DNA of 39,240 nt, taken from positions 1 through 39,240 of IMG/VR virus record IMGVR_UViG_2634166457_000020. The stretch is one strand, 5' to 3'. The DNA is from a virus (taxonomy: Duplodnaviria > Heunggongvirae > Uroviricota > Caudoviricetes). Shown here in pieces: positions 7,443 to 37,436 of the stretch (the first letter of the stretch is position 1; each line of letters opens with the position of its first letter). The notes beneath the pieces were generated by a model. That model worked only from the letters and a program-made list of their open reading frames with translations. It made no database searches and had not been told where the DNA came from. The position numbers and the translations under genes are program-made.

Positions 7443-7512
7443 CATATCTATTCGCACCTTAAAGGTAATAAAAAACCAAATCTGGTTGATCTTTTTTTTG
7501 TGTCAGCACAAA

Positions 7513-7749
7513 ATGACCGTAATCCCAATACTAATAACAGGGCTTACCATGGAAATCATTACACGTATTGATGCCGCAAAGCGCGGACTTAAACGCTACT
7601 ACACCGGAAAACCATGTAAGCACGGACATGACAGTGAACGCTGGGTTTACAACGGACACTGTGTTGAGTGCACCATGGAATCAAACCGTCGTATCAGGGC
7701 AGAGATTAAGCAGATCATGATTAATTCCTCCCCACAACATTCAAGCTGA
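7513..7749 (+). CDS. Small Cys/His-rich (zinc-finger-like) protein at the cII position; start uncertain (7486 TTG, 7513 ATG or 7549 ATG)
   Basis: Motif CKHGHDSERWVYNGHCVEC; preceded by a GCACC-TTAAA-GGTAA site at 7454-7468. Confidence 0.4.
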   Translation: MTVIPILITGLTMEIITRIDAAKRGLKRYYTGKPCKHGHDSERWVYNGHCVECTMESNRRIRAEIKQIMINSSPQHSS

Positions 7750-7764
7750 TAGCGGAGATTAATC

Positions 7765-8580
7765 ATGAGCAGACATGCAACAGATTGGGCCTGGGAGACA
7801 GATCCAGGTAGCTCGTCATTAAAGCTCATACTGCTCTCGATGGCTGACAGAGCCGATGAATATAACCTCTGCTACCCCAGCATAGAACGCCTCGTTAAAG
7901 ACACTTGCCTGAATAAAAAAACCGTGCAGGCCGGACTTATATCGCTCATGAAAATGGGGCTTATTTCAGATACCGGAGAGAGAAAGGGGGCGACGAAAAG
8001 AGTGCGGGTTTTCTCTCTTAATATAACCAAAAAAGGGAACATTAAAGGCAACCTGGAAGGGTGTAATGAACCCGAAAACGGTAATGTTCCCGAAAACGGG
8101 AATATACCCAAAAACGGGATGTTGAATGATCCCAAAAACGGGATGTTGAATGATCCCAAAAACGGGATCCAGAACCAGTCATATAACCAGTCATTTAACC
8201 AAGAGAGGGAGAGCAGGACAAAAAGCGGGGATTCTGTGCCTCATGACCCCGGCGCAAACAACGCCGTGATGAATAACTTTGTTCCTCCTGGTGGGCCAGG
8301 GCAATTAGGCAAATTTGTCATGCATGAACAATGGCAACCATCAGATGACTTTCTTCGGAAAAGCTCATTGCAGGGGATCTACCTGGACAGTCTGCCAACG
8401 GCACAGGAACTTGCAGAGTTCAGAATTTACTGGATGGCTGAGGGTAAGGCATACCATCAGGCACAGTGGGAGCAGAAGCTGGCAAGGAGGCTGCAGATTA
8501 GCAGACAGAAGCAATCAACATTACCTGATAACAACGTTCCGCACTGGAACAGCCCTGAAGCATGGGAGGATTTCTTGTGA
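7765..8580 (+). CDS. Replication initiator, lambda O-like, 271 aa, with repetitive NG-rich linker
   Basis: N-terminal winged-helix-like region, internal repetitive linker encoded by iterons, position immediately upstream of a lambda P homologue. Confidence 0.65.
   Translation: MSRHATDWAWETDPGSSSLKLILLSMADRADEYNLCYPSIERLVKDTCLNKKTVQAGLISLMKMGLISDTGERKGATKRVRVFSLNITKKGNIKGNLEGCNEPENGNVPENGNIPKNGMLNDPKNGMLNDPKNGIQNQSYNQSFNQERESRTKSGDSVPHDPGANNAVMNNFVPPGGPGQLGKFVMHEQWQPSDDFLRKSSLQGIYLDSLPTAQELAEFRIYWMAEGKAYHQAQWEQKLARRLQISRQKQSTLPDNNVPHWNSPEAWEDFL
8071..8196. repeat. Five direct iterons CCC(G/A)AAAACGG(G) at 8071, 8089, 8107, 8131, 8155 plus two AACCAGTCAT repeats; candidate origin of replication inside the O-like gene
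   Basis: Direct repeats at 18-24 bp spacing, including an exact 24-bp tandem duplication (8107-8130 / 8131-8154), followed by a moderately AT-rich segment. Confidence 0.55.
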
Positions 8581-9362
8581 ACAACGTTTTTACCGCGATA
8601 CAAAACCGTGACGGAGAAGCTCTTTCTCGTATGTCAGGTTATGAGCATCAGTACACCAACAATGACAACGTGGTGAACATGTCAGCAGAGAGGCTTGTTG
8701 ATGCCCTTTTCAAACAGTTGAAACAACTGTTTCCGGCGGCAGTGGTAACCAACCTGAAGACGCCAGAGCAGGAAGTTGCTGCAAAACAGCAGTGGATTGC
8801 TGCGTTTGCCGAAGGGGGGATCCGAACCCGTGAACAGGTTTCTGCTGGTATGCGCCACGCCCGCGCCAGTGAATCTCCGTTCTGGCCGTCGCCAGGGCAA
8901 TTTATCAAGTGGTGTAAAGACAGCAAGATGGTTCTTGGCGTCACCATTGACGATGTGATGGCGGAGTTTCACCGGTACAGCAAGGAAAAAAGTTTATATC
9001 CTGGTGGTCCCGAAAGATTCCCGTGGCGGCATCCGGTTATGTACTGGGTCGTATGTGATACCCGCCGTGCAATGTATCAGCGCCAGCTTAGCGAGATTGA
9101 GGTTGAGAAACACGCGCGCAGGCTGCTCGATGATTGGGCGAAAAAGGTGGCTTCCGGACAGCAGATACCCGATCCGGTGATCAGCATACAGGCAAAGCCA
9201 GAGCCCATGAGTACACCTCCGGACACAGGGATAGACGTTTACCATCCACAAGGGCGAAGTTTCGGGTGCATGCCTAACGCCGCCACCCTTAGGGGAATAA
9301 CACCGGCGCAGTGGCTGATGGAGGAATACAGGCGGGGAAAGGCGGTAGGATTTATCAAGTAA
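8562..9362 (+). CDS. Lambda P-like replication protein (helicase loader), about 262-266 aa; start uncertain (ATG 8562 or GTG 8577)
   Basis: Clear similarity to remembered lambda P core: QWIAAFAEGGIRTREQVSAGMRHARASESPFWPSPGQFIKWCKD vs lambda RRQWVLAFRENGITTMEQVNAGMRVARRQNRPFLPSPGQFVAWCRE. Confidence 0.8.
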   Translation: MGGFLVNNVFTAIQNRDGEALSRMSGYEHQYTNNDNVVNMSAERLVDALFKQLKQLFPAAVVTNLKTPEQEVAAKQQWIAAFAEGGIRTREQVSAGMRHARASESPFWPSPGQFIKWCKDSKMVLGVTIDDVMAEFHRYSKEKSLYPGGPERFPWRHPVMYWVVCDTRRAMYQRQLSEIEVEKHARRLLDDWAKKVASGQQIPDPVISIQAKPEPMSTPPDTGIDVYHPQGRSFGCMPNAATLRGITPAQWLMEEYRRGKAVGFIK

Positions 9363-9479
9363 TACCAGCGCGATAGCGCATTTTTTTACGTCTACATAAT
9401 TACCTGTTAGGTAATAAAATGTTCTAAAATCTATTGATTTCGTGTCTTATGTGGTTTTTAATTACCTCAGGGGTAAATC

Positions 9480-9824
9480 ATGAGAAAACAGATGCAGGCT
9501 CTTGGTCGACTCAAAACAGGACAGATGAACAAAACAGAATCTGCGTATTGCCAGCACCTTGAGCAGCGTAAACGTGCAGGGGAAATCGCCTGGTATCGAT
9601 TCGAGGGTATCAAGCTGCGGTTAGCTGATAACACGTTCTATACGCCCGATTTTGCTGTGATGCTCGCCACCGGCGAGATGGAACTGCACGAAGTGAAAGG
9701 TTTCTGGACCGACGACGCCAGGGTGAAAACCAAAGTCGCCGCAGATCAGTATCCGTTCCGAATCATCGGGGTAACGGTTAAACCAAAGAAAGCAGGTGGT
9801 GGCTGGAACATCGAAGAGTTCTGA
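9480..9824 (+). CDS. Hypothetical phage protein, possibly PD-(D/E)XK nuclease-like (DUF1064-like), 114 aa
   Basis: Motifs TPDF ... ELHEVKG suggest a D-(E)xK active site arrangement; low certainty. Confidence 0.45.
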   Translation: MRKQMQALGRLKTGQMNKTESAYCQHLEQRKRAGEIAWYRFEGIKLRLADNTFYTPDFAVMLATGEMELHEVKGFWTDDARVKTKVAADQYPFRIIGVTVKPKKAGGGWNIEEF

Positions 9825-9885
9825 ATCGACGATCTTTTTAGTTATCAATGTTATCAATAAGTTATGTGGATAAACGAGGGTAAAG

Positions 9886-10515
9886 ATGGAAAGTAATATC
9901 AAAGGGTTAGTTTCCGCCGGGCATGAGATGGCTTCGGAACTGAAAGCAGAATGTGGTGCCGTTGATATGCGCAGTGTGGCAAAGCTGATCAGCGATTTGG
10001 CAACGCAACTGGAAGTGCAACTGGTGCGTGCTAATGCGCTGGCCGAAGACCACCAGAGAGCGATTGAGTCAATTAAGCAGGCTGATTCGGCTGTTAAGTT
10101 GGCACACGAGAACTTTTCGGCGCTGGCGGCGGAGAATATAGCACTGAAATCTGCACACCCTCAGCAATTCGGTCAGAAAATGATGGATGCATTGGTTGCA
10201 TTGGTTGCATATGAGGAATGCCAGGACGATGTACCAGAAAGAGGAATGCTTAATGCGTTCTTCATCCTTCGTGACAGTGTTTGCATTGACACTCCTGCTA
10301 CTGGCGCTTTCCTGGCGGAAGTGCGGGCGCAGGGGGTGGATGCTGCTATAGGAGCTGCAAAAAATCTGGTGGCCCAAGAATATGAGTATAAGGATTTCAA
10401 AGCGGCGCAGAGTGATTGCTGTATGCACCCTGGTTCAGACCTGGTAGGGAAGGTTGAAATGACTGAGTGGTTAGTTGACTTTGCTGCCCAGCTTCGCAAA
10501 GGAGGCAACCAGTGA
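9886..10515 (+). CDS. Hypothetical protein, 209 aa
   Basis: ORF with coding character in the nin-like region; no recognisable motif. Confidence 0.45.
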   Translation: MESNIKGLVSAGHEMASELKAECGAVDMRSVAKLISDLATQLEVQLVRANALAEDHQRAIESIKQADSAVKLAHENFSALAAENIALKSAHPQQFGQKMMDALVALVAYEECQDDVPERGMLNAFFILRDSVCIDTPATGAFLAEVRAQGVDAAIGAAKNLVAQEYEYKDFKAAQSDCCMHPGSDLVGKVEMTEWLVDFAAQLRKGGNQ

Positions 10516-11096: not shown

Positions 11097-11097
11097 T

Positions 11098-12197: not shown

Positions 12198-12471
12198 CCT
12201 GCAACTTGCCGTCAAAGGTGAATACTTCGATGCCATGATTCGCGGGGAGAAAACAGAAGAATATCGCCTGTGTAATGACTACTGGAATAAGCGAATTATG
12301 TTCAGGGAGTATGACCGCCTGATTATCACAAAGGGATACCCGAAGCGCGACGATTCCAGCCGCAGAATTGATATTCCGTATGGCGGATATGAAATCAAAA
12401 CAATCACACATCCGCACTTCGGCGATAAACCGGTAAAGGTGTTCGCGATAAAGGTGAATATTGATGGCTAA
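12190..12471 (+). CDS. Hypothetical small protein, about 93 aa (GTG start with GGAGG SD)
   Basis: ORF 12118..12471 trimmed to GTG at 12190 preceded by ggagg. Confidence 0.4.
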   Translation: MANLQLAVKGEYFDAMIRGEKTEEYRLCNDYWNKRIMFREYDRLIITKGYPKRDDSSRRIDIPYGGYEIKTITHPHFGDKPVKVFAIKVNIDG

Positions 12472-12802
12472 ATCAGCAGCAGAGCGCAAAGCCGCTCAGA
12501 GAGCCAGACAAGCTGAATCCGGTGTGCGTAAGCTGGAAATTATGCTTGATGCTCAGGAAATTGAAATGCTGGAGCGTAACTGTGCCACGCGTCGCCCCGG
12601 GCGTGCGCCTTACGAATTTGGTGAGTATATAGCGTTACTGATCCGCCAGGATGATGCACGCGTGCGTGGGCGTATGAAATCGATCAGCAGAAAACGTTGC
12701 GGTAAGTGCGGAGAGAGAGTTCCTGTGAATTCATGCCCGTGTAATGGTGACTCGCAATGCTGGGTGACTAAAGGCTGGCATGAAACGAAATTAATAGTGT
12801 GA
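12464..12802 (+). CDS. Putative DNA-binding regulator: ribbon-helix-helix-like N-terminus plus C-terminal zinc ribbon, 112 aa
   Basis: RKLEIMLDAQEIEMLE resembles an RHH strand-helix; C-terminal CGKCGERVPVNSCPCNG is a four-Cys zinc-ribbon pattern; stop abuts palindrome AGTGTGACATGTCAC. Confidence 0.45.
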   Translation: MAKSAAERKAAQRARQAESGVRKLEIMLDAQEIEMLERNCATRRPGRAPYEFGEYIALLIRQDDARVRGRMKSISRKRCGKCGERVPVNSCPCNGDSQCWVTKGWHETKLIV

Positions 12803-12819
12803 CATGTCACGAAGGTGTT

Positions 12820-13032: not shown

Positions 13033-13037
13033 ATACT

Positions 13038-13063
13038 GCCGCCAACTATGGCGGCTTTATTTT
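13038..13063 (+). terminator. Rho-independent terminator upstream of terminase genes (GCCGCC-AACTAT-GGCGGC plus TTTATTTT)
   Basis: 6-bp GC stem followed by T-rich tract. Confidence 0.6.
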
Positions 13064-13097
13064 GCATGGTACTATTACCACAACGGTAACTATTACC

Positions 13098-13703
13098 ATG
13101 GTGGTTATGATGCCTGCTGAACCTAAAACCTATAAACGCAAATCAACGCAATTTAAGCCACTAACAGCAATGCAGGAGGCTTATTGCCAGTCATACATCA
13201 AAACGCCTGAAAACCAGACTCAGGCTGCGATTAACGCAGGATTCTCCCCAAATACAGCGGCAGTTAAAGCCAGTGTCATGATGCGCGATGAACGCATTCA
13301 GAAACGGATTGCCGAGTTGATGGAGGAGCGCAACAAACGAATGCGCGTCAGTGCTGATTACGTTCTCATGCGCCTGGTGGAGATCGACCAGATGGACGTG
13401 ATCGACATCCTCAACGACGATGGGAGCCTTAAACCAATCCGTGAGTGGCCGAAAATCTGGCGCACTACGCTTAGTGGCTTTGATCTGTCGTCGACCATCA
13501 TGAACATGAACGAGGATTCGATAGAGACAATCCTCAAAAAAATTAAATGGCCTGACAAGGTGAAGAACCTTGAGCTGATTGGTAAGCATGTTGATGTCAA
13601 CGCGTTCAAAGAACGTCTGGATGTTAATGTGAATGTGACAATTGCTGATCGCATAGCAGCAGCCAGGAAGCGACTCAAAGAACGTCAGGATGGTAATCAG
13701 TGA
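13098..13703 (+). CDS. Terminase small subunit, about 201 aa; start uncertain (13098, 13107 or 13110)
   Basis: Sequence YCQSYIKTPENQTQAAINAGFSPNTAAVKASVMMRDERIQKRIAEL resembles the HTH-type terminase small subunit family; stop overlaps the large subunit start (GTGA). Confidence 0.7.
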   Translation: MVVMMPAEPKTYKRKSTQFKPLTAMQEAYCQSYIKTPENQTQAAINAGFSPNTAAVKASVMMRDERIQKRIAELMEERNKRMRVSADYVLMRLVEIDQMDVIDILNDDGSLKPIREWPKIWRTTLSGFDLSSTIMNMNEDSIETILKKIKWPDKVKNLELIGKHVDVNAFKERLDVNVNVTIADRIAAARKRLKERQDGNQ

Positions 13704-15175
13704 CAGATACAGCGTTATCTCCTGAAGAGCAGTTGATCGAGGATATTGCAGGGTTCACTCACGATCCGCTTGGCTATGCCCTCTATGCGTTCCCGTGGGG
13801 GGAAGAAGGGACTGAACTGGCACATGCTACCGGCCCACGTCAGTGGCAGGCTGATGCGTTCCGAGAGATACGTGATCACCTGCAGAATCCAGCGACGCGC
13901 TATCAGCCGCTTATGCTGGCACGCGCTTCTGGTCACGGTATTGGTAAATCCGCATTCATCTCAATGCTGATCAACTGGGGCATGTCCACTTGCGAGGATT
14001 GTAAGGTCGTGGTGACCGCCAACACCGACAACCAGCTACGAACGAAGACCTGGCCGGAAATTATCAAGTGGTCGAACCTTGCTATCACGAAAGACTGGTT
14101 TACCTGTACCGCTACCGCGATGTACAGCAATGATCCTGGGCACGACAAGCGGTGGCGAGCTGACGCAATCCCCTGGTCTGAGCACAACACTGAGGCATTC
14201 GCCGGACTACACAACGAGCGCAAACGCATCATCGTGGTATTCGATGAAGCGTCGAACATTGCGGATCTGGTGTGGGAAGTTGCTGAGGGTGCGCTTACGG
14301 ACGAAGACACTGAGATTATCTGGGTGGCGTTCGGAAACCCTACACGTAACACCGGGCGTTTCCGCGAATGTTTCCGCAAATATAAACACCGCTGGAAAAC
14401 TGCGCAGATTGACAGCCGGACGGTGGAAGGCACTAACAAACAGCAGTTGCAGAAATGGGTTGATGACTACGGGGAAGACAGCGACTTCGTTAAAATCCGT
14501 GTGCGCGGCATATTCCCGGATGCATCTGAATTGCAGTTTATCCCTACCGGACTTACTGACGAGGCAATGAAACGGGTGGTCACCGCTGCGCAGGTTGCAC
14601 ATGCTCCGGTGATAATCGGCGTTGACCCGGCATACTCAGGCGTTGATGACGCTGTGATATACCTGCGGCAGGGGCTGCACAGTAAGGTGCTGTGGACTGG
14701 CAACAAGACCACTGACGATCTGATTATGGCGAAGCGTATCGCTGACTTTGAAGACCAGTACCAGGCTGACGCAGTGTTCATCGACTTCGGTTACGGAACT
14801 GGTCTGAAGTCAATCGGTGACGGCTGGGGTCGTACATGGCAACTTGTTCCGTTCGGTGGCGCGTCTACTGACCCGCAGATGCTCAACAAGCGTGGGGAGA
14901 TGTTCAACTCATGTAAGACATGGCTGAGGCTGGGCGGCATGCTGGATGACCAGGAAACTGCAGACGACCTGTCGGCGGCAGAGTACAAAGTTCGAGTGGA
15001 CGGTAAAATCGTTATCGAACCGAAGGAAGATATCAAAGAGCGACTTGGGCGTTCGCCGGGTAAAGGCGATGCGCTGCTGCTGACGTTTGCTTTCCCGGTG
15101 TCGAAGCGCCTGCGACTTCCCGGGCAGCAGAACCAGCAAGGCAAGGCGCTTACCGAGTACGATCCATATGCTTAG
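13700..15175 (+). CDS. Terminase large subunit, 491 aa
   Basis: Walker A-like LARASGHGIGKSAF, Walker B-like IIVVFDEASNI, C-terminal nuclease-like region; typical size and position. Confidence 0.9.
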   Translation: MTDTALSPEEQLIEDIAGFTHDPLGYALYAFPWGEEGTELAHATGPRQWQADAFREIRDHLQNPATRYQPLMLARASGHGIGKSAFISMLINWGMSTCEDCKVVVTANTDNQLRTKTWPEIIKWSNLAITKDWFTCTATAMYSNDPGHDKRWRADAIPWSEHNTEAFAGLHNERKRIIVVFDEASNIADLVWEVAEGALTDEDTEIIWVAFGNPTRNTGRFRECFRKYKHRWKTAQIDSRTVEGTNKQQLQKWVDDYGEDSDFVKIRVRGIFPDASELQFIPTGLTDEAMKRVVTAAQVAHAPVIIGVDPAYSGVDDAVIYLRQGLHSKVLWTGNKTTDDLIMAKRIADFEDQYQADAVFIDFGYGTGLKSIGDGWGRTWQLVPFGGASTDPQMLNKRGEMFNSCKTWLRLGGMLDDQETADDLSAAEYKVRVDGKIVIEPKEDIKERLGRSPGKGDALLLTFAFPVSKRLRLPGQQNQQGKALTEYDPYA

Positions 15176-15768
15176 TCTTTATTTTTATCCTCGAAACCTG
15201 ATAATCCAGATAGAACACCAAAGTTATTAAAAACGTCTGGCTTACCAGATTTTAATCCGGATAAGTTGTGTTGCTCCAAAAAGTTGCTAATTGTTTGGCC
15301 GTTGCCAAGTGCAAGACTTTTTATTTGAGATTTTTCAGGGTATTTGAGTTTGTATTCGTCGAAATCATTTTGGAGGGTCTTATATGCCTCATTCATTCTT
15401 CCCAGAGTTTCCGATATCTCTTTTAATGAATGATTTAGAGCTGCTAACTGAGCACTGGCGGATCTCAATTCGTCATCTTTAGCTTTCAACTCGGCAGTCA
15501 ATTCCCCCATACTATTCTTTGATCGAATAATCTCTTCTTTCATCTCTTGGATGTCTTTTTCCGCGCCAGTCTTAACTTTGTCGTATGTAACATCTTTTTT
15601 AGCCAATAACCTCTGCAGTCTGGTTTCACGCTGGATTTTTCTTGCCTTCAGGTGATTATCGATTGAGTCATTATTATCAAGAGGCTTTGCTTGCCATACG
15701 TTAATGATATTGTTTACCCATGGTAATAGGCAGCAGATAGCAATTACAGATAAGCATGGATAAAACAT
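15172..15768 (-). CDS. Moron-encoded membrane-anchored coiled-coil protein, 198 aa
   Basis: N-terminal hydrophobic anchor LSVIAICCLLPW then long K/E-rich heptad-like region; AT-rich, antisense to the late operon; stop overlaps terminase stop (TTAG). Confidence 0.55.
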   Translation of the reverse strand: MFYPCLSVIAICCLLPWVNNIINVWQAKPLDNNDSIDNHLKARKIQRETRLQRLLAKKDVTYDKVKTGAEKDIQEMKEEIIRSKNSMGELTAELKAKDDELRSASAQLAALNHSLKEISETLGRMNEAYKTLQNDFDEYKLKYPEKSQIKSLALGNGQTISNFLEQHNLSGLKSGKPDVFNNFGVLSGLSGFEDKNKD

Positions 15769-15777
15769 AACAGTTTT

Positions 15778-15990
15778 TCATGTGCTGTTATCTGAGATAT
15801 ATGAAATTTTATCTATTATGTTTGATTTGCTAAAAAATAGATAAAGAATTGATTTCCAGTTGAAGGCGCACCAGGACATAACAAAAGCACCAAGCACAGG
15901 GTTTTTGGCTCGATTCACGGCAGTATTGGCAGTAGATAAAAACAGCTCTTTGAAGGATTCAAACATGCTAATTACCTTGAAGTTTTTCAT
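15778..15990 (-). CDS. Moron-encoded small membrane protein, about 70 aa
   Basis: Start at MKNFKV (ATG 15990..15988) with AAGG SD; hydrophobic segment PVLGAFVMSWCAFNW; 9 bp upstream of the 198-aa gene. Confidence 0.45.
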   Translation of the reverse strand: MKNFKVISMFESFKELFLSTANTAVNRAKNPVLGAFVMSWCAFNWKSILYLFFSKSNIIDKISYISDNST

Positions 15991-16025
15991 GATTATACCT
16001 TTAAGGTAATTTGCGGTCATCAAGC

Positions 16026-16049
16026 AAAAAAATGCCCGGCGAACCGGGC
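16026..16049 (-). terminator. Rho-independent terminator on minus strand (GCCCGG-CGAA-CCGGGC plus U-tract), downstream of the tRNA
   Basis: 6-bp GC stem 16034-16049 with A-run 16026-16032 on plus strand. Confidence 0.6.
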
Positions 16050-16212
16050 GAACTGGAAGCAATGAGTTATGCCTTCCGTGGCTGTACTGGTTTACAGCAT
16101 GAAGTCATCGCAATGGCGTCCTGCTGTAAAAAGGGCGGTGATAGTCCTTCAAGGGAAACCATCACCGCCAAGCCCCTGGAACTTCTGGCATCACGGTCCT
16201 TAGGCGTGATTC

Positions 16213-16289
16213 TGGCGTGGCATGCAGGATTCGAACCTGCGACCAACCGCTTAGAAGGCGGTTGCTCTGTCCAACTGAGCTAATGCCAC
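16213..16289 (-). tRNA. tRNA-Arg (anticodon UCU, reads AGA), 77 nt including encoded CCA
   Basis: Manually folded cloverleaf: acceptor GUGGCAU/AUGCCAC, D-stem GCUC/GAGC, anticodon stem ACCGC/GCGGU with loop CUUCUAA, T-stem GCAGG/CCUGC with loop UUCGAAU, discriminator G, CCA. Confidence 0.85.
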
Positions 16290-16716
16290 AACGCTGAGAG
16301 CACTTAGCCTGTTAAGGCACCACACTTTGTCGCGGCTCCATAAATGCTCTCATCGTTGTACCCTCGTCTCTTCCGAGGCGTCACACCGAATCGCCGGGAT
16401 GGTGAATCCCCGTGCGCGGAATAAAACCGCTCGACTTGCACATTCCGGCTACCTGGTTCGTTTGCCCGAGCAAGGGAGGGTGCCCCTTAAACGTATCCAG
16501 ACCGCTATCGTCGCATGTGCCATACGCCGTACTGCTCAAAATAAAAGCTCACTCCACCTGTTCAATTTAACGACAAGCCAGTCAGGTTAGTAACCGGAAT
16601 GAACCCTTTAGTTACCTGAAGGGTAATAATTCGCGCGTTAAATGTCAACTGTCTACGATAAATAAATCATATGTGGTTAAATTGGTAATGATTTAATTGC
16701 GTACGGAGTCATTGAT

Positions 16717-19622: not shown

Positions 19623-20609
19623 ATGGCTGTTAAAGGCTTAACTGCGCTAACGCTGGCTGACTGGGGTAAGCGCGTCGATCCAAACGGGAAAGTCGATAAG
19701 ATTATCGAGCTTCTCGGTCAAACTAACCCGATCCTTCAGGATATGCCTTTTGTCGAAGGGAACCTTCCTACCGGACACCGAACCACCATTCGTTCTGGTT
19801 TACCTTCAGCTACCTGGCGTTTGCTGAACTATGGCGTACAGCCAAGCAAATCAACCACAGTGCAGGTGACCGATTCCGTTGGCATGTTGGAAACCTATGC
19901 TGAAGTCGATAAGTCACTGGCTGATCTGAACGGTAATACCGCCGAATTCCGCCTGTCTGAAGACCGTGCATTTATTGAAGCGATGAATCAGCAGATGGCG
20001 CAGACACTGTTTTATGGTGATTCCAGCGTTAACCCTCAGCAGTTTATGGGACTGTCCTCCCGCTATTCCAGCCTGTCTGCGGGTAATGCTCAGAACATCA
20101 TTGATGCTGGTGGCACGGGTACAGATAACACCTCAATCTGGTTAGTGGTGTGGGGCGAAAACACCGTGCATGGCATCTTCCCGAAAGGGCAGAAGGCTGG
20201 CATCCAGATGGAAGATAAAGGCCAGGTGACACTGGAAGATGCTAATGGCGGCAAGTACGAAGGCTACCGTACCCATTACAAATGGGACAACGGACTTGCT
20301 CTGCGTGACTGGCGTTATGTTGTTCGCATTGCAAACATCGATGTCAGCAATCTTTCAGAACCTTCCTCTGCCGCAAATATTGCGAAGTTGATGGTTAAAG
20401 CACTGCATCGCATTCCAAACCGTGGCATGGGTCGCCCGGTGTTCTACATGAACCGCACTGTAGGCCAGGCTCTTGATCTGCAATCTCTGGAGAAAACATC
20501 TCTGGCGATCAGCGTAAAAGAGACAGAAGGCGAGTGGTGGACTTCATTCCGTGGTGTACCAATCCGTGAAACTGATGCGCTTCTGGAAACAGAAGCCCGC
20601 GTGGTGTAA
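19623..20609 (+). CDS. Major capsid protein, about 328 aa
   Basis: Size and position; strong SD AAGAGAGGA with ATG at 19623; followed by a stem-loop. Confidence 0.7.
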   Translation: MAVKGLTALTLADWGKRVDPNGKVDKIIELLGQTNPILQDMPFVEGNLPTGHRTTIRSGLPSATWRLLNYGVQPSKSTTVQVTDSVGMLETYAEVDKSLADLNGNTAEFRLSEDRAFIEAMNQQMAQTLFYGDSSVNPQQFMGLSSRYSSLSAGNAQNIIDAGGTGTDNTSIWLVVWGENTVHGIFPKGQKAGIQMEDKGQVTLEDANGGKYEGYRTHYKWDNGLALRDWRYVVRIANIDVSNLSEPSSAANIAKLMVKALHRIPNRGMGRPVFYMNRTVGQALDLQSLEKTSLAISVKETEGEWWTSFRGVPIRETDALLETEARVV

Positions 20610-25909: not shown

Positions 25910-28423
25910 ATGCCAGTTGTACCAACAACATCGGGCCGTCAGGTTCAGAGCAGAGGGATTTCGACGCAGGGATTCTCATCGTTTCAGACACCAAATGTCG
26001 GTGATGTACTTGGCGATGTTGCAGAGCAATATGCAGGTATTATTGCGCAGGCAAAACAGCGTGCGAATGTTGCTATGGCTCAGGATGCTTCTCTTAGCTT
26101 AAGCCAGATAAGCAGCGATCTGCTGAATAACCCTGAAACAGGTTTGCTTAACCTGAAAGGGAAAAATGCTATTGGAAAAGGTCAGGAGTATACGCAGCAG
26201 TTTGATGCTCAGATCGAACAACTGGCTATGTCGCTGCCGGATGAACAGGCTCGTAATGCTTTCATGCAGCAGGCGCAGCAGCAGCGTATTCAGTTCACTA
26301 CGCAGGCCGGGCGGCACGAGATAGGGCAAATAAATGCCTACGAAGAAGGCCAGTTTCAGGCGACGCTGCTGAACAATGGTAAAAATGCCGCAGCATTGTA
26401 TGGCGACAACGCCGCATACGTATTGGCTAATAAGCAAACTTTCCAGCAAATTGAGGATTACGGCATTGCGCATGGCTGGAGCGACGAGCAAATACAGGCC
26501 AAGAAAATCGAGTTTAAAGAGAAGGTTGCTGATGCCGCATTGTCCCAGTGGTCGGCAAACAATGCGACCGCATTCATCCAAAGTAATGGTGAGTTAAGTG
26601 ATACTGCTGCTGGATCTCGCCGTGCTGTAGCAGATAGTGGCTATTCCGATCGTGCTCGAGGTATACGCAACAATAACCCCGGCAATCTTGAATACAGCAA
26701 AACTAATCCGTGGGTAGGCCAGACCGGTGATGATGGCCGATTTGCTAAATTTGAAACGCCTGAACACGGGATTCGTGCATTAGGGCGAAACCTGATGTCG
26801 TATCAGCGGCAGGGTATTGATACCGTCAACGAGATAATTAATCGCTGGGCACCGCCTACTGATAAAAATGACACAATGTCGTATATCAAAGCCGTGTGCG
26901 AACAACTTGGCGTTTCTGCTGATGAGCCTCTCGATGCATCTAATCCGGATACCCTGAAGGCGCTTTGTGCAGCCATTATCCATCATGAGAACGGTAGCCA
27001 GCCATACAGTGATCAGCAGTTAACTGCTGGTGTCAACGCAGCACTTGGTTTATCAACAATTCCAACCAACACCAAACGCTATACCGGTAATGCAGCATTC
27101 GATGCGGCATCTCCTGAGGCTCAGGCAAGTTTTATGCGACAGGCGGATCAACTGCGTCGGCAGCAGCAGGCCGAATATAAAACGATGATTGACAGCCAGG
27201 TTAGAGATGCGACAGCTGCGTATATGCGTGGGGTTGAATTTCCTAACCCACCTGGTGAGGCTGATTTTATTGCAGCTTATGGAGTCAGAGAAGGAAACCT
27301 GCGATATACCGAGTTCAGAAATACGCAGATCGCCGGACAGTATATAGGCTCTTTCCGCAACATGCCGACAAGCAGCATTACAGCATATGTTGAGCAATTG
27401 CGCCCGGATACTGGTGAGACAGGGGAGGGGTATGCGGCTCGCGCAGCTCTTTATGACAACGTTGTTTCGGCTGCAAATCAGGTGATAAAGCAGCGGCAGT
27501 CTGATCCTGTGCAGTTCTCTCTTGCCTCTGGACAGGCAAAGCCTATCGACATGAGCAATAAGGATAACTTTGGACAGAGCGTTGCCTTGCGTGCCGCTCA
27601 GGTCAGTGACCTTGCTAAGTCATATGGCACTCCACTGACGTTCTTTTCCAAAGACGAGGCCAATCAGATCGGTGTTTTTTTTCGTGATGCTCCAGTTTCC
27701 CAACAGGCAGCATATCTCGATACCATCAGGCAGAGCACTGGTGGTGGGCAGGTGTATATGTCAGCACTACAGCAGATCAGTGCCAACGCTCCATCTGCTG
27801 CCGTTGCCGGGATATTAATGGATAAACCTGGTGGTATTTTGGCAGAAAAAAACTGGTTTAATCCGGATGTTTCTGTGTCTCCTGAAACCGCTGCGCAGAC
27901 AATTCTTGCTGGCGCGGCGGCTCGTAAAGGTACTGATGACGCGAAAGGTATTCCGATGCCTAAAGATACTGATCTTCGCCTTGAGTTTTCTGACATGGTG
28001 AAGGATGCATTTGCTGGTGACGCTCAGGGGGCATCAATGGCATACGAGATCGCAAAGGACTATTACGCTGGTGTGATGGAGAAAAAAGGCGTGGTATCAG
28101 GCGAAATTGACAATGATGTCTGGAAACAGGCTGTTAACGTAGCTACAGGTGGCGTGCATGACTATAACGGAATGGGGAATGTCCTTTTGCCGTGGGGAAT
28201 GTCTGCAGAGCAATTCGATAAGCAGGTTAATCAGGCTTGGAATGAACAAGTTGTCGGCGCCGGGATAAAAACACCGCCTGGTCAGTATGGTTTGCAAAGT
28301 TACGGCGATAGTCAGTACCTGGTGAAACTTGGTACTGGTTATCTGCTGAAAGATGATGGTTCTCCCGTTGTTCTTGATCTGACACAGAAGCGTCAGAGAT
28401 TCTCCGGAGATATTCCGCAATGA
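25910..28423 (+). CDS. Internal virion/ejection protein, 837 aa
   Basis: Large protein in the internal-core position; contains conserved-looking segment GIRNNNPGNLEYSKTNPWVGQ ... HHENGSQPY. Confidence 0.55.
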   Translation: MPVVPTTSGRQVQSRGISTQGFSSFQTPNVGDVLGDVAEQYAGIIAQAKQRANVAMAQDASLSLSQISSDLLNNPETGLLNLKGKNAIGKGQEYTQQFDAQIEQLAMSLPDEQARNAFMQQAQQQRIQFTTQAGRHEIGQINAYEEGQFQATLLNNGKNAAALYGDNAAYVLANKQTFQQIEDYGIAHGWSDEQIQAKKIEFKEKVADAALSQWSANNATAFIQSNGELSDTAAGSRRAVADSGYSDRARGIRNNNPGNLEYSKTNPWVGQTGDDGRFAKFETPEHGIRALGRNLMSYQRQGIDTVNEIINRWAPPTDKNDTMSYIKAVCEQLGVSADEPLDASNPDTLKALCAAIIHHENGSQPYSDQQLTAGVNAALGLSTIPTNTKRYTGNAAFDAASPEAQASFMRQADQLRRQQQAEYKTMIDSQVRDATAAYMRGVEFPNPPGEADFIAAYGVREGNLRYTEFRNTQIAGQYIGSFRNMPTSSITAYVEQLRPDTGETGEGYAARAALYDNVVSAANQVIKQRQSDPVQFSLASGQAKPIDMSNKDNFGQSVALRAAQVSDLAKSYGTPLTFFSKDEANQIGVFFRDAPVSQQAAYLDTIRQSTGGGQVYMSALQQISANAPSAAVAGILMDKPGGILAEKNWFNPDVSVSPETAAQTILAGAAARKGTDDAKGIPMPKDTDLRLEFSDMVKDAFAGDAQGASMAYEIAKDYYAGVMEKKGVVSGEIDNDVWKQAVNVATGGVHDYNGMGNVLLPWGMSAEQFDKQVNQAWNEQVVGAGIKTPPGQYGLQSYGDSQYLVKLGTGYLLKDDGSPVVLDLTQKRQRFSGDIPQ

Positions 28424-32702: not shown

Positions 32703-32711
32703 GGATGAGAA

Positions 32712-32852
32712 ATGCTTACTTTTATTCTTGTTGTATTTGCGCTTGTTGCCCTTGGCGTTATGAACCGTAAATGTATCATTGAAGACGGTGAATTTGCTGT
32801 CGCAGTTGTTTTTATATTATCTGGTTTAGCGGGGTACATAGGTTTGTCATAG
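32712..32852 (+). CDS. Small hydrophobic peptide, 46 aa; not in ORF track
   Basis: ATG at 32712 preceded by AAGGATGAG SD; single predicted transmembrane helix; followed by palindrome and terminator. Confidence 0.3.
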   Translation: MLTFILVVFALVALGVMNRKCIIEDGEFAVAVVFILSGLAGYIGLS

Positions 32853-32872
32853 CTTGAGTGTGACATGTCACA

Positions 32873-32897
32873 GGCCGCTTTCGCGGCCTTTAATTTT
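32873..32897 (+). terminator. Rho-independent terminator ending the late structural operon (GGCCGC-TTTC-GCGGCC plus TTTAATTTT)
   Basis: 6-bp GC stem followed by T-rich tract; lies between convergent genes. Confidence 0.65.
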
Positions 32898-33153
32898 ACC
32901 GGATTTGTTTTCGTAATTGTTCGGCACAATAGTCGAGATGCGTTTGCAGATCCCGCATAGACATCTGTGAGTTGGTTACGTAGTTGATCAGTGCAGTCAG
33001 TTCGGCAAGTGGGCCATCGACATTGAATCCATCTTTATCGAGATCCCGGAGTAATTTCATCAAGTGCGATCCCTCCACTAGTGATCTGACGCCTCCAGGT
33101 GTGTGAATCCTTTCGGTAAATCCGTCTTCCAGTGGATAGTGATACTGCTGCAT
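32896..33153 (-). CDS. Hypothetical antisense small protein, about 85 aa (start MQQYHYPLEDGF)
   Basis: Internal Met of ORF 32896..33387 chosen because the upstream part overlaps the tailspike promoter region and the ATG at 33153 has a GGAGAAG SD. Confidence 0.35.
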   Translation of the reverse strand: MQQYHYPLEDGFTERIHTPGGVRSLVEGSHLMKLLRDLDKDGFNVDGPLAELTALINYVTNSQMSMRDLQTHLDYCAEQLRKQIR

Positions 33154-33349
33154 CTTATCTTCTCCATGCAATAACTGTATGAATATACAGTACCAAATAA
33201 TTTGTTTGCTATCCAGCACGTTTTGTAAATCACCTGAAAGGTAATATCTGTTCGTATCGATGATGTTTCTATCCCATATATGGTTTTTAAGGTAATAAAA
33301 TGGCCGGATATGCGGCGCAACGGGTGCTGCGACTATCTGGAGATTTAAC

Positions 33350-36106
33350 ATGACGGTCTCAACCGAAGTTGACCACAACGAATACATTGGTAACGGTGTT
33401 ACAACGACATTCCCTTATACATTCAGGATTTTCCAGAGATCAGATCTGGTAGTACATGTGGTTGACCTTGATGAAAATATCGCTGTGCTGGCGCTTGATA
33501 CTGATTACACAGTTACCGGGGCTGGTGGATACAACGGTGGTAATGTGATATTGACTACGGCACTGGCCAGCGGATACCAGATTTCCATATCGCGAGAACT
33601 CCCGGTTACGCAGGAAACTGATCTGCGCAATCAAGGGAAGTTCTTTGCTGAGGTGCATGAGGATGCATTTGATAAGCTAACGATGTTGATTCAGCAGGTT
33701 AGAAGTTGGTTTAGCCTAGCGCTGCGCAAACCGTCATTCGTGGCAAGCTATTACGATGCTTTAAATAATTACATCAGAAATTTGCGTGATCCACTACATC
33801 CACAGGATGCAGCCACTAAAAACTATGCTGACTCATTAAATGCTGAAAATACATCACATACAGATTTGTTATTTAGTAGAACTTTGCGTACAGCAGAAGG
33901 TATTCCACAATTACCATCTGCAGAGTTCCGCAAAAATAAAATTGTTGGTATGGATAATGACGGTAACCCGATCATGTTGTTACCGGAATCTGGTTCTGCC
34001 TCTGATGTTCTGCTGGAGTTGGCAAAACCAACTGGTGCCAGTTATATCGGTACGAAGTATGGTAGTCTTGATGAGTACATAGACAATACTCCAAGCCTGT
34101 TAGCCACAAAGTATATGGATGAAATTGAGATGGCAGCACTGGAGTCAGGTGACTTGTCAGTAAACCATCAGCCAAAGGTCCAGCAGGTAATGGATGAAGC
34201 CCATAACAGGAAATGCTCAGTGTATTTCCCGCCAGGTACATACTGCTTTGATACCGCTGTTAACGTCTGGTCTTACGTCCGTTCTGTTTGGGGTGACGGT
34301 AGTGCAATTATTACTCGTCGGTATCGCACGTTTTTTGTTGATGGCTCAACGACAGATATTGATCCGGCGCGTGATACACGTAAATTATTCCGATTGTTAA
34401 ATGGGGCATTGGGGTATATATCAGTGCATGGTATTACGTTTGATGGTAATGCCAGATCTATCGAGGTGTCGGAATCCGGTACGAGCGGTACGACAGGAAT
34501 TCCAGACCAAACATATTATCAGGACCTGGAGCCTGGTGGCACCTCTCCTTATGTCCATGGGCCTGATGGTAACATCCCTGTTCATGGGGAAAGCTATTAC
34601 AACCACGCAAAGAAACTGTCTGGAACAGATGTGTATGATTGTGTGTTTCGTGATGCTCCAGGCGGATGTATTGTTGGTAACTTCAGAAATCTTAGGGTCT
34701 CCTCAAACTCATTTTTGGGTTGGTATGATCACGCAATTTACGCAGCAGGAAGTGCTTTCGCTGATCAGGGTAATGGAATTTTGGTTGGTGATATTACGGT
34801 CACTGGGAATACCTTCAGGAACAGAATAAACACTCGTGGTAATGGGGCTGTTAAAGGAAGGTTTGGTTTTGACCGTTATACAGTTACTGGCAATACATTT
34901 GATGTTGTTGATTATTGTATGGCGTTTGATACTGGTCACGGGATGGTCGGAAGTGTTTACGCCATGCAGCCATGGGGGCAGATCACTGTAACTGGTAATA
35001 CATGCACCTGTGATAGTTATTGGATGATGATAGGTAACAACAGAGGTGTTAAGTGGTTTGATAACGGATGGATGTCTGCTATCAATATTTCTAACAACAC
35101 AGTCCAATCTAAGGATAGGATCCTGTTACTTGGAGTTAGCGGCAGTAATGATTATTTGATGGATGCATATCAAGTAAATATATCCAATAACACTTTTTCT
35201 GCACCTAACTTCTTATCGCTTTACACTCATTTAACTAACTGCGATTGGCGCATAGAAAGTAACAACATAACAATTACTAACACAGGGATGATTATAGGTG
35301 TAGACCAGGCTGAGGTTTCAAACTCAGTTCTTAGGCTTACAAATAATATAATGGGACGTGTATTAACGACCTCTACTGGCAATCTTCATCTCAGCAATTT
35401 CGAGCGCGTTATCATGAAAGGTAATGAGATTCGAAATCTGTCTATGAGTTTTGGTAGCTACGTTACTGACCTAACTATTGAAGGAAATGAATTCAGGTAC
35501 TCTTCTGCACTTCCTTCAAAACCATTTGGCTTTATGTACTCATCTGCTGGCAATGGATTCAACAGAATTAAATTATGTAAAAATAAAATCGTGGGTAGTC
35601 CAATAAGATTTTCCGTGAAATGCTCATCTGATTGTGTTCTTGACATGAGTGATAATAGCATTTACGGAATTACTGATTACTTCCTTGAGTTGAATGCAAC
35701 TGGTTACACTCCTAAAACCATGAGGGTTAACAACAATCTGGTGATAGGTGGTGCGCTAATAGCTGATCTTCCTGCTGGAGTATCTCTTGGTAGCACCTCA
35801 AGTTATATGGAGTTGATGAACAACACCTTACGATCAACTTCTCCAGGGACACAGCAGTCATGTACCATTCTGCGTGATGGAGGCGCTCAATCTTGGCTTA
35901 GCCATTATCAAACTATTCGGTGTGTAAAAAACACATTCCGCGATGTCACTAACATATTGAAAATAGATGGCTCTGCTTCTTCTGGGGTTTCTACAACTAA
36001 TAAGTTCTGGTTCGGCGAGAATCAGACATACAATTCAACGTTGACATGTAACTATCCTTCAATAAACAAGTCAAACACAGATGTCACACAGACTTTAAGT
36101 GTATAG
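33350..36106 (+). CDS. Tailspike/tail fiber protein with conserved N-terminal virion-attachment domain and beta-helix-like repeats, 918 aa
   Basis: N-terminal region EYIGNGVTTTFPYTFRIF typical of tail fiber/tailspike anchor domains; repetitive TVTGNTF-type segments suggest a right-handed beta-helix. Confidence 0.8.
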   Translation: MTVSTEVDHNEYIGNGVTTTFPYTFRIFQRSDLVVHVVDLDENIAVLALDTDYTVTGAGGYNGGNVILTTALASGYQISISRELPVTQETDLRNQGKFFAEVHEDAFDKLTMLIQQVRSWFSLALRKPSFVASYYDALNNYIRNLRDPLHPQDAATKNYADSLNAENTSHTDLLFSRTLRTAEGIPQLPSAEFRKNKIVGMDNDGNPIMLLPESGSASDVLLELAKPTGASYIGTKYGSLDEYIDNTPSLLATKYMDEIEMAALESGDLSVNHQPKVQQVMDEAHNRKCSVYFPPGTYCFDTAVNVWSYVRSVWGDGSAIITRRYRTFFVDGSTTDIDPARDTRKLFRLLNGALGYISVHGITFDGNARSIEVSESGTSGTTGIPDQTYYQDLEPGGTSPYVHGPDGNIPVHGESYYNHAKKLSGTDVYDCVFRDAPGGCIVGNFRNLRVSSNSFLGWYDHAIYAAGSAFADQGNGILVGDITVTGNTFRNRINTRGNGAVKGRFGFDRYTVTGNTFDVVDYCMAFDTGHGMVGSVYAMQPWGQITVTGNTCTCDSYWMMIGNNRGVKWFDNGWMSAINISNNTVQSKDRILLLGVSGSNDYLMDAYQVNISNNTFSAPNFLSLYTHLTNCDWRIESNNITITNTGMIIGVDQAEVSNSVLRLTNNIMGRVLTTSTGNLHLSNFERVIMKGNEIRNLSMSFGSYVTDLTIEGNEFRYSSALPSKPFGFMYSSAGNGFNRIKLCKNKIVGSPIRFSVKCSSDCVLDMSDNSIYGITDYFLELNATGYTPKTMRVNNNLVIGGALIADLPAGVSLGSTSSYMELMNNTLRSTSPGTQQSCTILRDGGAQSWLSHYQTIRCVKNTFRDVTNILKIDGSASSGVSTTNKFWFGENQTYNSTLTCNYPSINKSNTDVTQTLSV

Positions 36107-36107
36107 T

Positions 36108-36136
36108 AAAAAGGCGGCAATGCCGCCTTTGTTTTA
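36108..36136. terminator. Bidirectional rho-independent terminator between tailspike (+) and acyltransferase (-): GGCGGC-AAT-GCCGCC flanked by A-run and T-run
   Basis: 6-bp stem 36113-36127 with AAAAA upstream and TTTGTTTTATTTT downstream. Confidence 0.65.
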
Positions 36137-37252
36137 TTTTATCTTGTATCTTTTTTCAATTTTATTATACAGGATGGCGGAAAGTATAATTGCTAATGTT
36201 ATCGCCCCAAACTGCATCAATATAAAATATCTGGCTGATGTTTGCTCTAGGTTGATAAATTTGCTGTAAGAATTGAATGTAATGTTAAGCGATAACTGAT
36301 GTACTAAATACAAACTGTAACTTATAATACCAATATTCGATATGCTTCTTTTAGAAAAAATAGACGGTCTGGATGCGATAAATGCCATGAAAAATACTGA
36401 TGTCGCGCAGAACATTTCGAATTCATATACTTTAAAATCACCAAAAATCGAATATATAAAGAGCAATGGCATTACGATCCACAAAGCATGTTTCAAATAA
36501 TTATTTGCAGGTTGCTTTATGTACGAAGCAATAAATCCTGTCAGGAAGTATGTCCACATTATTTGTTCGTTCTGATATCCAAGATATATGATTATCAGAG
36601 CTAAAGGTATTAAAGATATTCTTAACGGTTTAATAGCAAATGCACAGGCAAGAAATGGAACTGCTGCATAATATTTCCATTCGTAAGGTAACGTCCATGT
36701 AACAATATTAAGACTCCAGTCCCATATTGATCCGACCCTGATCCCACCCCCCCAGAAACCAAACCCATAAACACTACGAATGACTGTCATTACCTCATCA
36801 ATAGTTTTTATTTGCCCGTATCTCTGGAACATGAAAATTGCAAAAACTATTGTGGAAACAACAACGTATGCAGGAAGTAATCTATAAATCCTTTTCTGGA
36901 AAAAAGAGATATCGAAAATTCCCTTTTTTATAGTAGATGAAAATAAAAAACCTGTTAAGCAAAAGAATATGGATACTCCAAACGCACCCATTTTTTCAAA
37001 TGCGTACGCTGGCTGAATATTCATGTATGGTGATTTTAATCCTATAGCGGCAATTACAGTGTATGAGTGGTTAACGAAAACTAATAGACACGCAACTCCA
37101 CGCAAGCCCTCAAGGCTAAGGTCGTTATGGCTGCCAATTGGCGATATGTCTACAAACTTGTTTAGAACATAGCAAACACATACAGCAAATGTTACAAAAG
37201 AAAATGCATATACTGAATTATGTATACTAAGTAAGGGGAGTAAATTATCCAT
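36134..37252 (-). CDS. Acyltransferase family 3 integral membrane protein (probable O-antigen/surface polysaccharide O-acetyltransferase), 372 aa
   Basis: Motif LEGLRGVACLLVFVNH and many transmembrane segments typical of acyltransferase-3 proteins; AT-rich; adjacent to the tailspike. Confidence 0.75.
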   Translation of the reverse strand: MDNLLPLLSIHNSVYAFSFVTFAVCVCYVLNKFVDISPIGSHNDLSLEGLRGVACLLVFVNHSYTVIAAIGLKSPYMNIQPAYAFEKMGAFGVSIFFCLTGFLFSSTIKKGIFDISFFQKRIYRLLPAYVVVSTIVFAIFMFQRYGQIKTIDEVMTVIRSVYGFGFWGGGIRVGSIWDWSLNIVTWTLPYEWKYYAAVPFLACAFAIKPLRISLIPLALIIIYLGYQNEQIMWTYFLTGFIASYIKQPANNYLKHALWIVMPLLFIYSIFGDFKVYEFEMFCATSVFFMAFIASRPSIFSKRSISNIGIISYSLYLVHQLSLNITFNSYSKFINLEQTSARYFILMQFGAITLAIILSAILYNKIEKRYKIK

Positions 37253-37436
37253 TTAATCCTTGGCTCATTATCTTTAGTTTAATAAACAAAATTTTATTGA
37301 TGAATTTCGCAAGTGTATCACCCAAAAGGTAATTTTGGTAGGAGTTATTCTGGGTAATTCAAATCATATGTGGTTTATTGTGTATGATATGATCACCAAC
37401 TAAGGGGGTCTTTATGCACGGTAACAGGTGGTTTTT

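Follow-up and report, generated by a model that had tools for sequence, protein, structure and literature searches.

The stretch of DNA analysed here (IMG/VR record IMGVR_UViG_2634166457_000020, positions 1 to 39,240; all 39,240 nucleotides are referred to below as the window) carries between its genes many copies of a short palindrome, TTACC-N5-GGTAA, which we consider together with the immunity repressor gene, rep, and the regulatory genes that accompany it. Megablast places the window among the prophages of phiV10/epsilon15-like temperate podophages, genus Uetakevirus, with ~97-98% identity to phiv142-3, PAS61, TL-2011b and phiV10 across most of the 11 kb tested. It runs from the start codon of the integrase gene to the end of the Rz gene, and looks like an integrated E. 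coli prophage without its att ends.

The repressor, Rep (194 amino acids (aa); 6429..7013, minus strand), comprises an N-terminal helix-turn-helix (HTH) DNA-binding domain (DBD), a middle HTH_3-like domain and a C-terminal tetramerisation/Ant-binding region. It is 100% identical to the repressors of phiV10 and ZX5, and a phmmer search against the PDB matched residues 1-190 of its 194 to SPC32H Rep (PDB: 5D50_A, E 4e-42), while a Pfam scan of Rep returned HTH_3 only, with no Peptidase_S24. SPC32H Rep, in the account given of it in PMC9638917, binds palindromic DNA as a tetramer in which the pairs of DBDs come from different dimers. A 2023 paper (PMC9986798) describes its build as an N-terminal DBD, a middle dimerisation domain and a C-terminal tetramerisation domain, with the paired middle domains ~100 Å apart, and remarks of its gene repression mechanism that it 'has not been extensively characterized'. 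Beside the tailspike gene lies a small antirepressor homologue, Ant (85 aa; 32896..33153, minus strand), which matches phrog_450, gives weak anti-repressor hits and, when the translations are compared by eye, is clearly homologous along its length to SPC32H Ant and epsilon15 gp19. Upstream of ant, at a distance of 22 nt, there is a perfect LexA box (CTGTATGAATATACAG; 33175..33190), which points to SOS induction through Ant rather than through repressor cleavage and by which LexA would control ant. Judged from these features, the switch is of the Rep/Ant type and not of the CI-autocleavage type, so that the lambdoid circuit assumed in an earlier reading of the window (the original prediction) does not fit: the repressor lacks the S24 autocleavage domain, and its homologue, SPC32H Rep, is a tetramer that is not cleaved. 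The third protein of the switch region is a small Cro-like regulator (76 aa; 7168..7398, plus strand), a homologue of epsilon15 gp39 (~75% identical, by eye), which matches phrog_35, 'transcriptional repressor', with E 5.6e-13.

The original prediction held that the palindrome recurs in intergenic regions across the whole genome, and this is borne out by counting. A scan of both strands for YYACC-N5-GGTRA, the check that had been proposed, found 10 palindromic sites (20 strand hits) where 0.34 strand hits are expected, a number reached by none of 100 shuffles, and TTACC-N5-GGTAA with at most one mismatch occurs at 12 sites in the window against 0.71 expected. The same sequence ranks first de novo among all palindromes with two five-base arms and a spacer of 0-12 bases, with seven exact copies, the runner-up having three. 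Every position listed in the original prediction carries the sequence attributed to it, and the statement that all copies are intergenic also stands: using a gene model curated from the open reading frame (ORF) list and the annotation of relatives, all 12 sites at one mismatch or fewer are non-coding, although non-coding DNA makes up only 2149 bases, or 5.5%, of the window (binomial P 7e-16) and would be expected to hold 0.07 sites at its own composition. Copies are not equally frequent inside genes, where there are no sites at this threshold against ~1.1 expected; two-mismatch sites in coding DNA number 22, compared with 13.5 ± 3.6 by codon shuffling, a mild excess (P ~0.01). Examples of such two-mismatch coding copies are found at 7278, 13933 and 31169. 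The symmetrised logo reads aTTACC-(AT-rich N5)-GGTAAt, with ACC and GGT invariant and zero information in the spacer. Seven of the 12 sites lie outside the immunity region, and the copies before the tailspike gene and the lysis cassette have TCACC instead of TTACC. Searching the text of the literature for the motif yielded nothing relevant.

The sites are densest around rep, with two to its left and three between it and the cro-like gene, overlapping the predicted leftward and rightward early promoters (PL and PR) and the rep promoter. In the left operator region (OL), the proximal operator (TTACCGTTGAGGTAA; 6295..6309) overlaps the predicted start of the leftward PL (TTGACA-17-AATTAT, 6337->6309), and the distal operator (TTACCCATTAGGTAA; 6357..6371) lies 62 bp upstream. 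In the right operator region (OR), the operator nearest rep (TTACCCAACAGGTAA; 7069..7083) overlaps the -35 element of the predicted leftward rep promoter; the operator nearest the cro-like gene (TTACCTTATGGGTGA; 7117..7131) falls within the spacer of the predicted rightward PR (TTGTTA-17-TATTAT, 7114-7142); and a weaker middle operator with two mismatches (GCACCCCATAGGTAA; 7086..7100) is spaced 17 and 31 bp from these neighbours, spacings that recur in epsilon15, BUCT711 and the loci L009 and L010.

Further copies open the early-right and middle units. The weak operator at 7454..7468 (GCACCTTAAAGGTAA) follows a terminator at 7420-7439 and precedes a zinc-finger-like gp40 homologue; it departs from the consensus at two positions, yet it keeps the invariant ACC...GGT core, and weak sites are found in syntenic positions in phiV10 (33112), Tyrion (35365) and BUCT711. 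Before the DUF1064 or 'nin-like' operon, a distal operator (9400..9414), whose epsilon15 counterpart (35906-35922) is annotated as repressor-binding, follows a conserved terminator annotated in phiV10, and a proximal operator (9462..9476), 62 bp downstream, lies on the -10/start and on the ribosome-binding site (RBS) of the gene at 9480. The predicted promoter of this block, TTGATT-17-TTTAAT, which is kept in relatives as TTGAAA/TTAAAT and TTGATA/ATAAAT, has a -10 that ends on the first T of the proximal operator.

The original prediction slightly under-counted the sites, having overlooked two copies before terS. One of them is perfect (13075..13089); its first base is the final T of an extended -10, TGgTACTAT, that would serve terS, and its epsilon15 counterpart (12-27) is annotated as repressor-binding. 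The other (TTACCATGGTGGTTA; 13093..13107; one mismatch) is 18 bp from the first and overlaps the terS RBS and start. In the phiV10 and PAS61 records terS is given a TTG start, equivalent to 13029 here, from which the frame traverses both a terminator (13038-13055) and the two operators. Epsilon15 TerS starts with MPAEPK, which puts the equivalent start in the window at ~13107-13110, so that the two operators sit between the terminator and the true start of terS, and look coding only if terS is started at the TTG of the phiV10 and PAS61 records.

The next copy, an operator-like site (ATACCTTTAAGGTAA; 15995..16009), precedes the ATG of a minus-strand ORF (15990->15778) by 4 nt. The original prediction took this site for the promoter region of a moron, a view we abandon: the supposed moron ORF (16011-16283) is not credible because it overlaps a minus-strand tRNA-Arg gene (anticodon TCT; 16213-16289), and its translation is a typical through-a-tRNA peptide. 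That tRNA gene, which lies between terL and the structural operon, was the sole match in an Rfam scan. The minus-strand ORF next to the site (15778-15990; 70 aa) and the one that follows it (15172-15768; 198 aa) match positions 1-62 and 68-267, respectively, of the 275 in phrog_4780, and, on the evidence of these matches, the pair (15172-15990) represents one accessory gene that a frameshift or a stop has broken in two.

The remaining three full sites all lie in divergent regions. That at 16612..16626 separates the leftward tRNA/accessory unit from the rightward structural operon (gp3, portal and following genes) and corresponds to an annotated repressor-binding site in epsilon15 (2931-2947). 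It contains TACCCT, 17 bp from a conserved leftward TTGACA, and the two would form a leftward promoter towards the tRNA unit. By coordinate arithmetic, 62 bp from this site there is a half-site, TGGTAAT (16674..16688), which lies at the predicted gp3 promoter start and is kept in five phages. Between ant and the tailspike gene, the operator at 33230..33244 (TCACCTGAAAGGTAA; epsilon15 counterpart 19895-19911, annotated as repressor-binding) lies ~62 bp upstream of the predicted ant start, and 51 bp away from it there is a GGTAAT half-site (33281..33295). The original prediction counted this second element as a weaker full copy, but only the right half-site is present, though it is conserved in relatives. 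A 17-codon upstream ORF (33301-33352) starts 7 nt past this half-site, and its ATGA end overlaps the tailspike start codon; a similar upstream ORF is found in epsilon15, and in PAS61 its start codon has been lost. The last operator (37318..37332), between the leftward O-antigen acyltransferase gene (oac) and the rightward lysis cassette, abuts the -35 of the predicted oac promoter; epsilon15 has a perfect copy at the lysis position (24704), lacking annotation there. Just beyond the left end of the window, ~40-60 nt upstream of the integrase gene, relatives carry a conserved near-operator (TTACCTTAAAGGTAT in phiV10). It is located at 26870-26884 in phiV10 and 26882-26896 in epsilon15, and is also present in SPC32H, PAS61, Tyrion and BUCT711, with some single-base variants in the spacer; Rep may touch int expression too.

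The layout recurs in related phages. The GenBank record of epsilon15 (AY150271.2) contains seven 'protein_bind: repressor' features, all of the form (A)TTACC-N5-GGTAAT, which lie before terS, before gp3 of the structural operon, before the tailspike gene, before the RuvC block and, in three cases, to the left of the repressor gene; scanning that genome adds unannotated copies in the repressor-cro interval and upstream of the lysis cassette, as well as one more before RuvC. The original prediction had considered dispersed control of this kind unusual for a lambdoid circuit; the epsilon15 record already annotates dispersed operators for the genus. De novo, the palindrome ranks top in PAS61, epsilon15, SPC32H, Klebsiella BUCT711, a 39.9-kb food-metagenome contig and a Serratia prophage, with its copies in syntenic places, and direct pattern scans find 14 sites in phiV10 and 15 in Enterobacter phage Tyrion against ~0.6 expected.

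When four regulatory regions were aligned across five phages, the half-sites proved to be conserved, in contrast to the divergent N5 spacer and most of the flanking sequence. Conserved half-sites around a free spacer are the signature of a dimeric DNA-binding protein, which makes it very improbable that the copies are not protein sites at all, but RNA hairpins that mask the RBS, or module-boundary sequences kept by recombination among mosaic phages. Such readings draw some support from position, given that the copies at 9462, 13093 and 15995 overlap the RBS and that the sites are located at module junctions, and from the double terS site, which folds moderately (-11.3 kcal/mol, z -2.0). A single palindrome, however, folds weakly and no better than shuffles (-4.2 kcal/mol, z -0.19), many copies are placed between divergent genes or ahead of every plausible transcript start, and under the recombination variant the flanks would be conserved too.

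In Rep, the likely reader of these copies, the N-terminal part is better conserved than the remainder. Rep proteins of different lineages are 42-45% identical overall and 54-56% identical in their first 70 residues; beyond these 70 residues, identity to the Klebsiella and Salmonella proteins is 36-37%. The putative recognition helix, NLVNRW, is invariant in five aligned Reps, the sole variants among 120 listed homologues being NLVSRW, NLINRW and NLISRW, and both of the variant-helix prophages looked at (NLVSRW and NLISRW) retain TTACC-N5-GGTAA. The operator is thus constant within the Rep family because the recognition helix is nearly invariant. Since helix and motif barely vary, a test of covariation within the family is uninformative, and the comparison was moved to out-groups.

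For this purpose, repressors that share only the N-terminal domain of Rep were identified by tblastn against phages. The cI protein of Pseudomonas phage PseuP_224, a lambda-like siphovirus carrying a Q gene, is 39% identical to Rep over 71 aa of this domain (pairwise E 1e-12), and its C-terminal half, by eye, looks like a LexA/CI-type cleavage domain. PseuP_224 has four sites of the TTACC-N4-GGTAA type, all within ~900 bp of cI, and zero elsewhere. In Pseudomonas phage JBD68 the sites beside the Rep homologue are of the type TWACC-N4-GGTWA: TAACC-N4-GGTAA and TTACC-N4-GGTTC stand upstream of the gene, with a third copy 1.3 kb off. In the homologue from Acinetobacter phage MD-2021a, the helix AYLSQI replaces NLVNRW, and TTAGT-N5-ACTAA, in the same 5-N5-5 geometry, is found on both flanks of the gene, which suggests that this repressor represents a variant of that DNA-binding fold with naturally altered specificity. 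That contig contains at least four TTAGT-N5-ACTAA palindromes (2917-2990 and 4103-4180). Conversely, in zth2-2, a structural relative (portal 45% identical) that lacks a Rep homologue, neither the site nor any dominant palindrome is present. As far as these genomes indicate, wherever the Rep N-terminal domain goes, in other hosts and other virion types, the motif goes with it, and a changed helix comes with a changed motif. This speaks against assigning the role of defining reader to a host factor, a late activator or the Cro-like protein.

The Cro-like protein deserves to be weighed separately, as the original prediction had left open whether the immunity repressor or Cro controls the many operons beyond PL and PR. 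Lambda-type switches have a repressor and Cro acting on shared operators, and the Cro-like protein (7168-7398) is highly conserved relative to epsilon15, including its putative HTH, and matches a 'transcriptional repressor' PHROG. It could in principle be the main reader, alone or alongside Rep, with the dispersed copies serving lytic-phase down-regulation and not prophage silencing, and within the genus conservation alone does not separate it from Rep. We nonetheless consider this unlikely. The TTACC half-site occurs beside Pseudomonas repressors that share only the N-terminal domain with Rep, and the Cro-like ORF beside PseuP_224 cI has no detectable similarity to the Cro-like protein of the window; the half-site changes along with the Rep-type recognition helix; and a lytic-phase repressor as the sole reader at late, tailspike and lysis promoters makes little biological sense. 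Of the two alternatives, control by the repressor is therefore the better supported, and it matches the 'protein_bind: repressor' features of epsilon15 at syntenic sites, although the Cro-like protein may bind as well as Rep.

Promoters were assigned by matches to the sigma-70 consensus, and we do not claim exact start sites. Several units open in the order terminator, operator, promoter, as with the terminator at 7420-7439 followed by the 7454 site, the conserved terminator followed by the 9400 site, and the terminator at 13038-13055 followed by the 13075 site. Centre-to-centre distances between sites recur as well: in five lineages the preferred values are 62 bp (seven pairs, six of them strong-strong), 17-18 bp (nine) and 30-31 bp (six), 62 bp being approximately six helical turns and 31 bp corresponding to ~105 Å. 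At PL and at the DUF1064 block one member of a 62-bp pair covers the start region or the end of the -10 and the RBS, and at terS the site at 13093 covers the RBS. In the gp3 and tailspike regions a single full site is accompanied, at 62 and 51 bp respectively, by a conserved GGTAAT half-site that falls at the likely core promoter, and the lysis region has a single full site.

Taken together, these data lead us to propose, with a probability we would put at roughly 80%, that Rep, the prophage's own repressor, has aTTACC-N5-GGTAAt as its operator and silences the lytic units directly. We infer Rep binding, repression at each promoter and looping from sequence. Under this proposal, the genome would be divided into terminator-insulated transcription units, each restarting from its own promoter, in place of PL/PR plus an antitermination cascade, and each promoter region would have one or two Rep operators (early-left, early-right, gp40, DUF1064/nin-like, terS-terL, leftward tRNA/accessory, structural, ant/tailspike and oac/lysis). 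In the lysogen, Rep would directly silence every lytic unit. Where full sites are paired, one lies on the -10/start and the other 62 bp upstream, or 17-18 or 30-31 bp off, and a single Rep tetramer could place one DBD pair on each operator, the DNA of the 62-bp pairs being bent or looped. On SOS induction, LexA would leave its box upstream of ant, and Ant would strip Rep from all sites simultaneously. Results obtained with the identical repressor of ZX5, over-expression of which lowered holin transcripts by 99.97% and endolysin transcripts by 99.99% (qPCR; PMC9782041), are compatible with direct repression of the lysis unit, without being proof of it.

A number of points weigh against this proposal. 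Instead of covering the likely rightward core promoter, the full site stands ~50-70 bp upstream of it before gp3, the tailspike gene and the lysis cassette. To repress gp3 and the tailspike gene it would have to be bridged to the half-site, and the lysis region offers nothing to bridge to; alternatively, these full sites may mainly serve the divergent leftward promoters of the tRNA unit, ant and oac. Promoter-like hits in the sigma-70 consensus scan are not enriched overall in the window, and such scans gave no convincing -35/-10 for the tailspike gene and, for gp3, an extended -10-like element only. The features of epsilon15 stand as labels in a record, and we cannot say whether they are experimental or predicted; the effect measured by qPCR in ZX5 could be indirect; and the evidence for covariation comes from only three out-groups.

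The same three regions offer a case for a different kind of reader, namely a host transcription factor or a phage late-gene activator, such as the phrog_536 regulator (12461-12802), that activates late promoters; the original prediction had likewise allowed for another phage or host factor. At gp3, tailspike and lysis the full sites are centred ~60-70 bp upstream of the likely start, with no good -35, as in an activator-like layout, and the window encodes candidate regulators (the phrog_536 protein, a PerC-like activator and AlpA). We find such a factor quite improbable. The densest and best copies flank rep in the classical OL/OR layout, and several copies lie on the -10, the start site or the RBS, which are repressing positions. 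The motif moreover accompanies Rep-type N-terminal domains across hosts and morphotypes, its half-site being tracked into Pseudomonas and Acinetobacter phages and altering with the recognition helix; PseuP_224, with its Q antiterminator, has no dispersed copies; and the Rep-less relative zth2-2 is without the motif. We know of no Enterobacterales factor with this consensus.

Direct control by Rep would place the window alongside several known systems. It shares with epsilon15 (gp38 sites, AY150271.2) and the SPC32H Rep-Ant pair (PDB: 5D50, 5D4Z) its genus and the 17-bp consensus ATTACC-N5-GGTAAT, as well as a homologous Rep (42% identity overall, 54% in the DBD) and an Ant with a LexA box, and, as in epsilon15, sites are found to the left of rep, between rep and cro, and before the DUF1064/RuvC block, terS, gp3 and the tailspike gene. 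By sequence, it has the features of a Uetakevirus Rep-Ant system, with a full-length Rep homologue, Ant beside the tailspike gene, rep-flanking sites and dispersed copies, to which Rep would bind. Unlike the epsilon15 record, the E. coli phiV10-type records leave the sites unannotated, and the 15995 site, before the split accessory gene, has no epsilon15 copy. The dispersed layout is real but not new, and current understanding is unchanged because the same sites are already annotated for epsilon15.

Repressors with dispersed operators are known from P1 (C1), from mycobacteriophage L5 (gp71, with its 'stoperators') and from the Streptomyces phage phiC31 (c, with conserved inverted repeats). The likeness to our proposal is a functional one, with no kinship in sequence to be expected, in that a single immunity repressor uses many genome-wide sites to silence lytic units directly. 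However, the sites of P1 and L5 are asymmetric, whereas those of the window are symmetric, promoter-proximal and often paired at 62 bp; the stoperators of L5 also lie in one orientation inside transcribed DNA, a feature that palindromes between genes do not share. As in lambda CI/Cro, where OL and OR are tripartite and CI octamers form a long-range loop, there are three operators between divergent repressor and cro-like genes and more at the leftward early promoter, and cooperative multi-site binding, as in lambda, is likely. Unlike in lambda, the repressor of the window has no S24 domain, induction is expected by antirepressor, and operators are also found at the middle, packaging, structural, tailspike and lysis units; among the window proteins scanned, none was recognised as a Q-type antiterminator. 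Similar to Rep, 'TetDloop' regulators of the RcopLS20/p53 type combine an N-terminal DBD with a C-terminal tetramerisation domain and are relieved by a partner protein (PMC9986798). RcopLS20 uses two operators 75 bp apart in pLS20, compared with 62 bp for the pairs here, and Rco recognises multiple direct repeats (PMC9986798), whereas the window operators are single palindromes at which Rep may loop the DNA.

Prophages of the phiV10 type are common in E. coli, including O157, and serve as reporter-phage chassis, and in their public records the operators are unmarked and some terS starts are mis-called across a terminator and operator. In this temperate phage a single repressor, sensitive to an antirepressor, appears to shut every lytic unit directly. 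Silencing of this kind would explain tight lysogeny and all-at-once induction, and it would predict silencing at all promoters of any superinfecting relative that has the same operator. The conserved 62-bp pairing and a second box, ATATGTGGTTT, provide modest new leads on how an SPC32H-type tetramer engages DNA, and the half-site architecture is also of some interest.

This second box occurs four times in the window at one mismatch or fewer (~0.6 expected by our own calculation), always on the plus strand: just upstream of the -10 region of the DUF1064 block (TTATGTGGTTT; 9447..9457), before gp3 (ATATGTGGTTA; 16669..16679), before the tailspike gene (ATATATGGTTT; 33276..33286) and before the lysis cassette (ATATGTGGTTT; 37366..37376). 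Each copy starts 47-58 nt past the start of a palindrome, just upstream of -10-like sequences, and the box is conserved in epsilon15, SPC32H, PAS61 and BUCT711. We dropped the idea that it is a degenerate operator half, since the box keeps to one strand and is conserved as a whole. It may belong to an unusual core promoter, or a late regulator may target it. The gene for the phrog_536 'transcriptional regulator' (12461-12802) is the last before terS. A tentative possibility, which we would sooner doubt than assume, is that the late-type regions (DUF1064, structural, tailspike and lysis) share an undescribed two-part cassette of Rep operator plus ATATGTGGTTT, in which the box is an element for a late activator (for example the phrog_536 regulator) and one Rep tetramer bridges a full site and a half-site, 62 or 51 bp apart, to veto it. 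Before gp3 and the tailspike gene, a Rep half-site comes after the box, at the start point. Were the cassette real, a single operator language would be used genus-wide, in Salmonella, Escherichia, Klebsiella, Enterobacter and Serratia, and immunity specificity would reside in the C-terminal domain of Rep and its Ant partner, not in the DNA sites.

Two other repeated elements were noticed in the window. A perfect 12-bp palindrome, GTGACATGTCAC, occurs twice, once where the early-right operon ends (12799-12810) and once, next to a terminator, where the structural operon ends (32860-32871); epsilon15, PAS61, SPC32H and BUCT711 each have three copies at operon ends, where ~0.005 per genome are expected by our own calculation, and as RNA the sequence has a weak fold. 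Inside the DnaT-like replication gene (7765-8580), six iteron-like repeats of ~24 nt with the core CCCnAAAACGGGA extend from 8019 to 8171, and by analogy with lambda O they are probably the replication origin.

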